Source: an uncultured archaeon
Lineage (GTDB): Archaea; Thermoproteota; EX4484-205; JAAOZP01
DNA length: 64,000 nt
Direction: 5' to 3'
NCBI GenBank assembly: GCA_938045545.1
Contig: CALIBN010000017.1
Location: 112-64,111, forward strand
Part shown: positions 54,821-57,226 of the stretch, one piece after another
How the letters are laid out: every line of letters begins with the position of its first letter
Position numbering within the stretch: the first letter of the stretch is position 1
Notes under the pieces: model-generated
The model's input: the letters and a program-made list of their open reading frames with translations, nothing else
What the model was told of the DNA's origin: nothing
Database searches by the model: none
Translations under genes and position numbers: made by a program

Positions 54821-57226
54821 ATGGTTCAGCAGGATGCTGAGGAGCTTAAAGAGAGGATGATGCAGGTGGCTGGCCGCAGGATACTCGCAGGCGGTCCGAA
54901 GCCCGTTCTAAAGGAGGGTGAGGAGCACGTTAGGGACACGCTTTCAGTCTGCCCAGAGTGCTACAGGCTTCTCCCCGCGCTTGTCTACGAGAAGGATGGT
55001 AAAATCTGGATTAGGAAGAAGTGCCCGGAGCACGGTGAGGTCGAGGACCTTTACTGGGGTGATGCCGCGATGTACAGGAGGGCGATGAGGTATGAGGCTC
55101 CTCGGGCAAATGTTAAGTATGCTTACAGGCAGCTTGAAAACCCCTGCCCCTTCTCATGCGGCATATGCTCCATCCACACTACTCAGACGGCTCTTGCCAA
55201 CGTTGTCGTGACGAACAGGTGTAACTTCTCATGCTGGTACTGCCTACCGGGAGACGAGAAGGTTCTTTTTAAGACCGGTGAAGAAATTTTGTTGGAAAGT
55301 TTTGAGGAGGCTTCGAAGAACCTTGCCTTCAACCATAAAGCTAAGGTGGAAGGCTTCTCCGGTGAATACGCTGTTCCCGAAAATCTGAACGTTCTAACTT
55401 TTAATGGGGGTAAGGCTGAATGGACTAGGGTTACAAAAATATTCAGAAGAAGATATGAGGGAAAGATTTTGAGGATTAAGACGCGGACAGGGCGTGAAGT
55501 CAGGGTGACGCCGGAACACATGTTTTTCGTTAATGAGAACGGAGAAATAAACAAAAAGCGAGCTGACCAGCTTGATGGGAAAAGCGAGCTCATCTTACTC
55601 TGGAGTTTCAATGCCATCAGCAGCCTCGGGGAGATCAACCTCTTAGAAAGGTTTAAAACACCTCCGGGGGGAGACGAGGAGAAAGTCTACGTCAGAAGCG
55701 TGGACGACATCAACGTCCTCCTGTTGAGGAGGAAATACGGGTTGCCTAAGCTCAGGAATGGCCATTTAGTGAATCTTGGCGATATTGGTGAAAGGAAGGA
55801 GGCTAGGGTAGTGAGGCTTGGAGACTTTTACCTAGATAAGGTGGAGTCTATAGTAGAAGAGCACTACGCTGGCTACGTGTATGATTTAGAGGTTGAGAAC
55901 GAGGGCCATTCATTCGTAGCGTCAGACGGTTTTCTGCTTAGCAACTGCTTCTTCTTCGCCGAGAGGTCTGGCTACGTGTATGAGCCAACGCTGGAGCAGT
56001 ACAGGATGATGATGAAGCATTTGAGGAAGCAGTATCCTTACGGTGCTAAGGCTATTCAGCTCACGGGCGGCGAGCCTTTGATGAGGGACGACCTTGTCGA
56101 CGTCATCAGGATAACGAGGGAGGAGGGCTTCACCCATATTCAGCTCAATACTCACGGTGTTTTCTTCGCGCTTGAAGGTGGTGTCGAGCTCGCCAGGAGG
56201 CTTAGGCAAGCAGGGGTTAACACCGTCTACCTGAGCTTCGACGGACTCGACCCGAGGATAAACGTGAAGAACCATTGGGAGATCCCCTATATTTTTGAAA
56301 ACTTCCGTAAGGCCGGTATGACTAGCGTCGTCCTCGTCCCCACCGTGATAAACGGCTGGAACACTCATGAGCTTGGAAAGATAGTGAGGTTCGCCGCAGT
56401 TAACAGCGATATAGTTAGGGGTGTTAACTTTCAACCCGTCTCGTTGGTAGGCCAGATGCCTAGGAGCGAGAGGGATAAGCATAGGATAACCATCCCGGAT
56501 GTGATAAGGCTACTGGAGGAGCAGACGAACGGGGAGATAGGTAAAGAAGCCTGGTACCCCGTCCCGTTCACACTCGTGTTGACAACGTTCCTAGAGAAGC
56601 TGACTAAGGGTAAGGAAAGGTGGCACATGCCTATTCACCCTGCCTGCGGAATGGCGACCTACGTTTATCTCGACAGGTCTAAGAATGGCATCCATTTCGT
56701 GCCGATAACGAGCTTCGTTGACGTAGAGGGACTCTCGGAATACTTGAGGGAGAAAACTGTTGAGATGGAGAAAGGGAGAAGCAGATACATGGTGATGCTT
56801 GAACTAGTCCGTAGACTTGGTCGCTTCATAGATAAGGAGAAACAGCCCAAAGACCTCAACCTAGGAAAAATACTGACAAATATAATCCTCAGAAGAAGCT
56901 ACGGTGCGTTAAGCATATTTCATTATAAATTTAATTATTTAGGTATGATGCATTTTATGGATCCGTATAACTACGATGTCGAGAGGGTTATGCGTTGCGG
57001 TGTTCACTACGTCACCCCAGACATGAACGTCGTCCCCTTCTGCACGTTCAACGTCCTCCCGGAGCTCTACAGGGATAATGTTCAGAAGGAGTTCTCGGTG
57101 AGCCTTGAGGAGTGGAACAAACTTAAGCCCGGGACCGTTGGTGATAAGGCTAAGTATAAGAGGGACGTTAGGAAGCTCGCATCCGGAGAGACATATAAAA
57201 AGACGTATGAGGGTTTCCTCGAGTAG
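54821..57226 (+). CDS. radical-SAM protein with N-terminal rubredoxin-like zinc ribbon (possibly tetraether lipid synthase Tes/GDGT-MAS family); intein host
   Basis: Zinc ribbon 'CPECYRL...CPEHG'. A second Cys cluster 'CPFSCGIC'. The radical-SAM CxxxCxxC, 'NRCNFSCWY[intein]C', is reconstituted only after splicing. 'LTGGEPLM' is the SAM-binding motif. The extein is about 566 aa. Assignment to the Tes family is tentative. Confidence 0.75.
   Translation: [801 protein letters not shown]
55241..55945 (+). mobile_element. mini-intein (235 aa) inserted inside the radical-SAM cysteine motif
   Basis: Block A '[13 protein letters not shown]'. The C-terminal '[15 protein letters not shown]' is followed by +1 Cys, which is the third Cys of CxxxCxxC. 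No full LAGLIDADG domain is recognisable. Confidence 0.7.

Follow-up and report, generated by a model that had tools for sequence, protein, structure and literature searches.

We analyzed a window of 64,000 nucleotides (nt) from an uncultured archaeon (contig CALIBN010000017.1, positions 112 to 64,111). In this window, a gene predicted to encode the radical S-adenosylmethionine (SAM) enzyme tetraether lipid synthase Tes is interrupted in frame at positions 55241 to 55945 of the plus strand, on which all features described here lie. We are very confident that this 235-residue segment (Cys1 to Ser234-Asn235) is a class-1 mini-intein in the Tes gene of a Candidatus Brockarchaeota archaeon, that it comes from a known lineage of Tes inteins, and that its ~453-residue LAGLIDADG ancestor lost the endonuclease by one in-frame deletion of 654 nt. 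Without a homing endonuclease, the intein is now immobile. The arrangement is not new: inteins at this site are widespread, are named in NCBIfam (NF045703), and have been studied in Pyrococcus abyssi under the name "MoaA" intein. What the window adds is a new endonuclease-deleted allele of this lineage. Taken by itself the allele is unremarkable, since archaeal inteins at catalytic cysteines are familiar and the lineage is already catalogued.

The Tes precursor gene (54821 to 57226, with the stop codon at 57224 to 57226) is a complete open reading frame (ORF) of 801 residues. The N-extein (residues 1 to 140; 54821 to 55240) ends in C134-N-F-S-C138-W-Y140, which includes the first two cysteines of the radical-SAM cluster, C134 and C138 (55220 to 55240; C138 is Cys-3 relative to the intein). 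The C-extein comprises residues 376 to 801 (55946 to 57223). The intein lies between Tyr140 and the third cysteine of CNFSCWY/C (slashes mark junctions), and the precursor reads NRCNFSCWY/CLPGDEK...FLLSN/CFFFAERS. The junction codons are TGC for Cys1 (55241 to 55243), AAC for Asn235 (55943 to 55945), and TGC for Cys+1 (55946 to 55948). Translation of 55241 to 55945 gives exactly the 235 residues quoted in a preliminary description of the window, which had proposed a mini-intein here from the letters of the DNA. Cys+1 is a ligand of the radical-SAM cluster, and Cys1 takes its place in the precursor. Pfam Intein_splicing (E = 1.5e-19), TIGR01445 (intein_Nterm, E = 9.5e-18), and TIGR01443 (intein_Cterm, E = 3e-5) all match the intein segment on its own. 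Its removal in silico yields a Radical_SAM match over the full profile (positions 1 to 166); in the C-extein, Radical_SAM matches at precursor residues 376 to 525. These family matches and the restored host profile are far beyond chance.

The splicing motifs fall into two halves, delimited by the family profiles and by the predicted local distance difference test (pLDDT) of a structural model. The N-terminal HINT half (intein residues 1 to 125; 55241 to 55615; TIGR01445) opens with Cys1 of block A and contains block B as T90-P-E-H93 (55508 to 55519). The C-terminal half (residues 190 to 235; 55808 to 55945; TIGR01443) contains blocks F and G, with V213-Y-D215, H223, and S234-N235. Between them, a remnant linker (residues 126 to 189; 55616 to 55807) has a low-confidence structure. 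In the AlphaFold2 model, which took a 16-sequence alignment as input, residues 1 to 125 and 190 to 235 form an all-beta HINT core with 10-residue block-mean pLDDT of 85 to 97 (88 to 97 in residues 190 to 235), and residues 127 to 187 have pLDDT below 50. Foldseek gave 48 matches to the PDB at E <= 0.001, every one of them an intein or a Hedgehog HINT domain (best E = 1.4e-11), with the Pho RadA, TFIIB, CDC21, and KlbA mini-inteins at the top. Similarly, a PDB sequence search with the intein returned PI-PkoII plus the KlbA, CDC21, and RadA inteins. The archaeal mini-inteins Pho RadA (4E2T), Mvu and Mja TFIIB (5O9I and 5O9J), Pab and Pho CDC21-1, and Mja KlbA (2JMZ) are, like the window copy, HINT domains without an endonuclease, matching it at Foldseek E values of 1e-11 to 2e-8 and 13 to 22% sequence identity. 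They occupy other hosts and sites. The window intein keeps a poorly ordered remnant, ~60 residues long, of the deleted region.

Comparison with homologs places the insertion precisely. The 120 best homologs of the intein-containing query include 58 intein-free proteins, in which CxxxCxxC-FF[FY]A runs continuously across the site. Full-length inteins of 382 to 468 residues with LAGLIDADG domains are found in 50 and mini-inteins of 171 to 235 residues in nine, all at the identical position; the remaining three are fragments that do not extend to the radical-SAM motif. The intein share of 59/117 is inflated by the presence of an intein in the query and is not used as an estimate of prevalence. 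Named carriers include Pyrococcus sp. NA2, P. abyssi, Thermococcus litoralis, T. zilligii, T. bergensis, T. atlanticus, and Archaeoglobus profundus. The window intein is 69% identical to that of its relative P0002 and 56% identical to the Pyrococcus sp. NA2 intein. When 1.84 billion representatives were searched exhaustively with the intein as the only query, 433 matches at E <= 1e-3 were obtained, in which the Tes-intein clade scores at least 89 bits and other inteins at most 83 bits. A genome scan with a 4-sequence intein alignment and two narrow peptide patterns returned metagenome-assembled genomes (MAGs) only, missing the cultured Thermococcales, and says little on the true distribution.

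The same homologs bear on whether the segment might instead be a native, lineage-specific radical-SAM domain. The preliminary description had named two findings that would speak for this or against its own host assignment: homologs showing the segment to be native, or an extein that falls outside the Tes family. The survey returned 58 homologs without the insert, among them a syntenic Brockarchaeota ortholog, and an extein that is Tes. The fold and catalytic motifs of the segment are those of HINT domains, and related copies contain a LAGLIDADG endonuclease. With intein-free homologs, HINT-only Foldseek matches, and a syntenic empty site all refuting it, and no support found on the other side, we rejected the native-domain explanation, whose probability is negligible. 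As for an RNA element, no tRNA genes or Rfam matches were found in the window. The GC content of the intein (0.45 to 0.49) is only slightly lower than that of the flanking extein (0.50 to 0.55), a difference too small to be informative about a foreign origin.

The C-terminal Asn235 followed by Cys+1 is the ending expected of a class-1 intein, but the penultimate His (block G:6) is absent and Ser234 stands in its place. A penultimate His is common in inteins, but not universal. Documented inteins that lack it are able to splice (PMC4031507), so its absence does not exclude class-1 membership. Further, 58 of 59 Tes-site inteins end in SN, indicating that the penultimate Ser is a lineage trait and not an oddity of the window copy. 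All 59 start with C[LFI]P, precede Cys+1, and retain C1, T90 and H93 (block B), D215 and H223 (block F), and N235; the CxxC geometry of Cys-3 and Cys1 is conserved in every one. Two peculiarities had been pointed out at the outset, the SN ending and the missing endonuclease, and both are real. Neither PF14528 nor PF05204 matches the window precursor, which does not qualify as LAGLIDADG-bearing, and the LAGLIDADG motifs of relatives fall inside a block of 218 codons that the window copy has lost.

By sequence, the host protein is the tetraether lipid synthase Tes, with a predicted activity in biphytanyl C-C bond formation. Against the Tes equivalog model NF045702 (NCBIfam, cut-off 450 bits), the spliced extein scores 697.5 bits and the precursor 677 bits. 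Residues 32 to 534 of the spliced 566-residue extein align to the crystallized Methanocaldococcus jannaschii GDGT/MAS (MJ0619; 7TOL) with E = 2e-143, up to chain residue 515. The alignment is ungapped at the junction, where the 7TOL segment is NRCNLNCPICFANANKSGKVYEP. This protein (7TOL/7TOM) is intein-free and has a contiguous radical-SAM motif, CNLNCPIC, whereas the window Tes is split by the intein. The preliminary description had held that CxxxCxxC is completed only by splicing, with Cys1 mimicking the third cysteine, and the ungapped alignment and the 58 intein-free homologs bear this out.

All four metal-site motifs of 7TOL are common to the spliced extein, with motifs at residues 44 to 71, 109 to 116, and 134 to 141. 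The first is a rubredoxin-like zinc ribbon, C44-x2-C47-x20-C68-x2-H71 (54950 to 55033), within a Pfam Zn_ribbon_HMPTM match at precursor residues 38 to 79 (E = 3e-19); its spacing equals that of the CX2CX20CX2H site of MJ0619 (PMC9433317). An N-terminal auxiliary [4Fe-4S] motif, C109-x3-C113-x2-C116 (55145 to 55168), aligns with 7TOL, and its cysteines are the counterparts of C73, C77, and C80 of MJ0619 (PMC9433317). The C-terminal cluster/lipid domain also aligns, with its Cys residues conserved. The alignment to MJ0619 and the Tes family, which had been proposed as a check, verifies both the extein junction and the family, together with the zinc ribbon, extra Cys cluster, and C-terminal domain first read in the host. 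MoaA (GTP 3',8-cyclase) was rejected as the host, with 79 bits against the TIGR02666 and TIGR02668 cut-offs of 284 and 325; the "MoaA" label on Tes-intein hosts reflects only the shared radical-SAM core. The precursor is 100% identical to P0001, GenBank entries from Candidatus Brockarchaeota MAGs that are named only "radical SAM protein."

The NCBIfam model NF045703 ("tetraether lipid synthase Tes, intein-containing") matches the window intein with E = 5.9e-74. It indicates the same site, with intein residues 1 to 165 on profile positions 156 to 320 and the C-extein from position 611. The window protein scores 918 bits against a cut-off of 1700, below the member threshold, because profile positions ~321 to 542 (endonuclease) have no counterpart in it.

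The loss of the endonuclease can be traced to a single event. Compared with its closest full-length relatives, P0002 and P0004 (453 residues), the window intein has lost a single block that carried both LAGLIDADG motifs, so that ...LLLRRKYG167 now adjoins L168PKLRNGH. At the DNA level, comparison with the full-length locus L005/P0002 shows that exactly 654 nt (218 codons) are missing, in frame, leaving a scar at Gly167/Leu168 between positions 55741 and 55742. A second Brockarchaeota MAG, represented by locus L001, has the same deletion end points. Other mini-inteins have different end points, indicating that the endonuclease was lost repeatedly. Near-identical mini alleles are present in at least three MAG assemblies.

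An intein-free counterpart of the window locus was also found. The Tes of Brockarchaeota locus L035 has 567 residues and no intein, and its neighbors are those of the window: a secretion ATPase, an A24 peptidase, a metallophosphoesterase, and an NTPase, then Tes, a 1-Cys peroxiredoxin, and arginase. This is a syntenic empty site. The L001 (mini) and L005 (full-length, 1019 residues) loci were matched only by the size and order of upstream ORFs and by gene-level DNA identity. Empty, full-length, and mini states, with minis derived independently, appear to coexist at one orthologous Brockarchaeota locus, as in a complete classical homing cycle. Between the window and L005, synonymous divergence (dS) is 1.49 in the intein and 0.43 to 0.60 in the exteins. 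Because intein dS exceeds extein dS, the two inteins probably diverged before their host genes did, which suggests horizontal movement. In the same comparison the ratio of nonsynonymous to synonymous divergence (dN/dS) is 0.12 for the intein, which indicates long-term constraint.

The comparison between the window and L001 covers the time since the deletion, and its dN/dS values rest on few substitutions: 0.27 to 0.44 in the HINT halves and 0.04 in the C-extein (47.5 synonymous and 7.5 nonsynonymous changes), with 13 nonsynonymous and 2 synonymous changes in the remnant linker. These small counts are consistent with a splicing core that is being maintained, a scar in decay, and a host gene that still functions. 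A linker that evolves as if unconstrained, its low-confidence predicted structure, the lost endonuclease, and the absent penultimate His could also mark the mini-intein as a decaying, splicing-defective remnant, which would make this Tes copy effectively a pseudogene at the protein level. We consider this very improbable. The reading frame is intact, and every residue invariant across the 59 inteins is kept. The C-extein has been under strong purifying selection since the deletion, which is unexpected for a dead gene, and the window showed no second Tes gene. The penultimate Ser is usual in the lineage and occurs in the P. abyssi intein, which splices experimentally according to reviews. The window copy is instead likely still active as a class-1 mini-intein, since it keeps the invariant splicing residues, its dN/dS is low, and near-identical mini alleles recur in MAGs.

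With the residues retained, splicing would be expected to follow standard class-1 chemistry. An N-S acyl shift at Tyr140-Cys1 would be followed by trans-thioesterification to Cys+1. Asn235 would then cyclize, with Asp215 and His223 of block F assisting in place of the missing penultimate His, and an S-N shift would join Tyr140 to Cys+1. The product would be a 566-residue Tes with a contiguous C134-x3-C138-x2-C141, able to bind the radical-SAM [4Fe-4S] cluster. The preliminary description had presented splicing as an obligatory maturation step. This stands in the sense that applies to almost any active-site intein and in no stronger one, and for the window copy we infer the step from its sequence.

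In the precursor, C138-W-Y-C1 forms a CxxC pair. According to two reviews, a native Cys-3/Cys1 disulfide in the P. abyssi "MoaA" intein blocks splicing until it is reduced, and this redox trap is presented as protecting an oxygen-labile enzyme (PMC3922620; PMC10663303). The P. abyssi protein Q9V0T6 (CAB49617.1; WP_010867823.1; 1042 residues) is "Molybdenum cofactor biosynthesis MoaA" in UniProt and "Tes, intein-containing" at NCBI, and its junctions read CNLNCWY/CFPP...VSN/CFFY. Its intein shares with the window copy the Tes host, the insertion CxxxCWY/C...SN/CFF, the Cys-3/Cys1 CxxC pair, the class-1 residues, and the penultimate Ser; identity is ~52% through the N-splicing region, a value that blocks F and G exceed. 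The two differ in that the P. abyssi intein has ~455 residues with a LAGLIDADG endonuclease and a euryarchaeal host, whereas the window copy has 235 residues, with that domain deleted, and a host from the Brockarchaeota (TACK). The redox-trap result reportedly goes back to Callahan et al. 2011, which both reviews cite. The Q9V0T6 intein is very probably the "Pab MoaA intein" of that work. We hold it highly likely that the window intein belongs to the characterized P. abyssi lineage, as a member that lacks the endonuclease, and that the "MoaA" host of the literature is Tes. Because the redox-trap host is Tes by its sequence, conditional splicing of the "MoaA" intein would act on tetraether-lipid synthesis and not on molybdenum-cofactor synthesis.

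Annotation of Tes-intein hosts is inconsistent (Q9V0T6, EHR79824.1, AEC50963.1, MDK2982987.1, and others). Labels in use for intein-containing Tes are "Molybdenum cofactor biosynthesis MoaA," "7,8-dihydro-6-hydroxymethylpterin dimethyltransferase," "radical SAM protein," and "Tes, intein-containing," and the intein literature still says "MoaA." Among searchable papers, we found none linking an intein to Tes or to the synthesis of tetraethers or glycerol dialkyl glycerol tetraethers (GDGT).

Several points weigh against our account of the intein as an active, redox-sensitive member of this lineage. "Pab MoaA" was equated with Q9V0T6 from its name in UniProt, the length of the protein, and its Cys-3/Cys1 geometry, and the post-deletion dN/dS values come from a small number of changes. 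The ~60-residue remnant, whose structure is predicted with low confidence, could slow folding or splicing. Finally, intein-free orthologs up to 93% identical exist, so the intein is not needed for Tes function, and this weakens an adaptive reading of redox control.

By analogy with the P. abyssi homolog, oxidizing conditions would probably lock a Cys138-Cys1 disulfide and block the first splicing step, and oxygen-labile Tes would, given such a trap, mature only under reducing conditions. Redox-trap behavior is described in the reviews for the P. abyssi intein only; the window copy shares its CxxC geometry, which makes trapping in this Tes plausible. It is doubtful, however, that the intein has been kept as an adaptive switch, in which the Cys138-Cys1 disulfide, or a metal or Fe-S cluster on C134, C138, and Cys1, would hold Tes inactive until conditions become reducing or iron-replete, gating GDGT synthesis. 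In the reviews the P. abyssi homolog is a natural redox trap (PMC3922620; PMC10663303), and the CxxC geometry in all 59 inteins points the same way. The mini-intein also persists without an endonuclease and with its splicing residues intact, and three other radical-SAM hosts have inteins at the same cysteine, none with a penultimate His. A 1-Cys peroxiredoxin is a conserved downstream neighbor, which may be coincidence. Yet the empty, full-length, and mini variation among close relatives at one locus, and the excess of intein dS over extein dS, fit a selfish homing cycle. Endonuclease targeting of conserved sequence, together with the Cys, Ser, or Thr needed at +1, fully explains the choice of site. 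Moreover, in a useful gene an intein that can no longer move has to splice anyway or the host protein is killed. On sequence evidence, redox trapping may be adaptive or may just be tolerated. The presence/absence polymorphism speaks for a dispensable intein.

A wider proposal would combine these elements: the Pab "MoaA" intein, best known of the natural redox traps, and its relatives, the window copy among them, sit in Tes, their conditional splicing is a physiological switch coupling GDGT synthesis to redox or Fe-S availability in anaerobic hyperthermophiles, and the third radical-SAM cysteine is a recurrently colonized control point. We judge this combination unlikely. If true, this control point would be shared by Tes and the three non-Tes radical-SAM proteins, which represent at least one further defined family. 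A compact thermophile intein of 235 residues that brings its own native CxxC trap may also prove useful for redox-controlled protein splicing.

The three non-Tes hosts, all metagenomic proteins, were found among the best 150 of the 433 intein-search matches. P0257 is an AmmeMemoRadiSam enzyme (TIGR04337, 321 bits against a cut-off of 220) with the junctions GCNWLCSY/C...VSN/CQNYD. P0289 (GCNFDCLF/C...LGN/CQNWQ) is a radical-SAM protein whose activase-like matches are weak and fall below threshold, and P0292 (SCNMRCVF/C...VGN/CQNSD) is radical-SAM-like by its CxxxCxxC motif only. Like the window intein, these start at the third cysteine of CxxxCxx/C, are followed by Cys+1, and have a penultimate Ser or Gly and no His. 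Their hosts belong to other radical-SAM families, with C-exteins that begin CQN..., and the inteins are no closer to Tes inteins than many from unrelated hosts are (E = 6e-9 to 1e-7). Either shared descent or independent invasion could account for them. A search for inteins at radical-SAM cluster motifs, suggested in the preliminary description, has in this way returned same-site inteins in both Tes relatives and three non-Tes proteins, and the third cysteine of CxxxCxxC may be a recurrent insertion hot spot, with the non-Tes inteins as the candidates for it.

One metagenomic Tes, P0191 (1310 residues), holds a 235-residue mini-intein at the CxxxCxx/C site and a second intein at residues ~427 to 907, inside the SAM-binding GGE motif (AVQL/SLDYDEK...LLLVHN/TGGEPTLR).

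The region downstream of Tes in the window differs from that of L001. An AT-rich segment of ~460 nt (57227 to 57686) is absent from the L001 locus, although identity there is otherwise ~95%; of the 617-nt spacer between Tes and the peroxiredoxin gene (GC 0.39), only the last ~157 nt match. The segment has no repeat elsewhere in the window and no tRNA or Rfam match, and contains short mechanical ORFs only. The 1-Cys peroxiredoxin gene itself (57844 to 58449) is conserved as the next gene downstream of Tes wherever a Brockarchaeota locus was checked: Pfam identifies it in the window and L035, and L001 has an ORF of matching size and position. To connect this neighbor with a redox-sensitive Tes precursor would be speculation.

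Other genes in the window also appear to carry inteins. An anaerobic ribonucleotide reductase gene, NrdD (7889 to 12628; PF13597, E = 1.4e-180, with an ATP-cone), appears to hold two, with junctions read by eye. The first putative intein, at residues ~277 to 747 (nt ~8717 to 10129; GFQSL/CGDEP...LVFHN/TPFSN), has LAGLIDADG-like motifs. The second, at residues ~885 to 1280 (nt ~10541 to 11728; NPLTG/CYDEN...WCGN/SIGVT), has a penultimate Gly. Upstream of Tes, a type II/IV secretion or pilus ATPase gene (49417 to 52635; PF00437) is split by an intein of ~477 residues, from residue ~444/445 to 921 (nt ~50746 to 52179; FQAMA/SVSRDTP...LLHN/TGHGG). We take its position and start to resemble those of a KlbA-type intein (2JMZ). 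The syntenic secretion ATPase of L035 has 543 residues, which fits an intein-free form.

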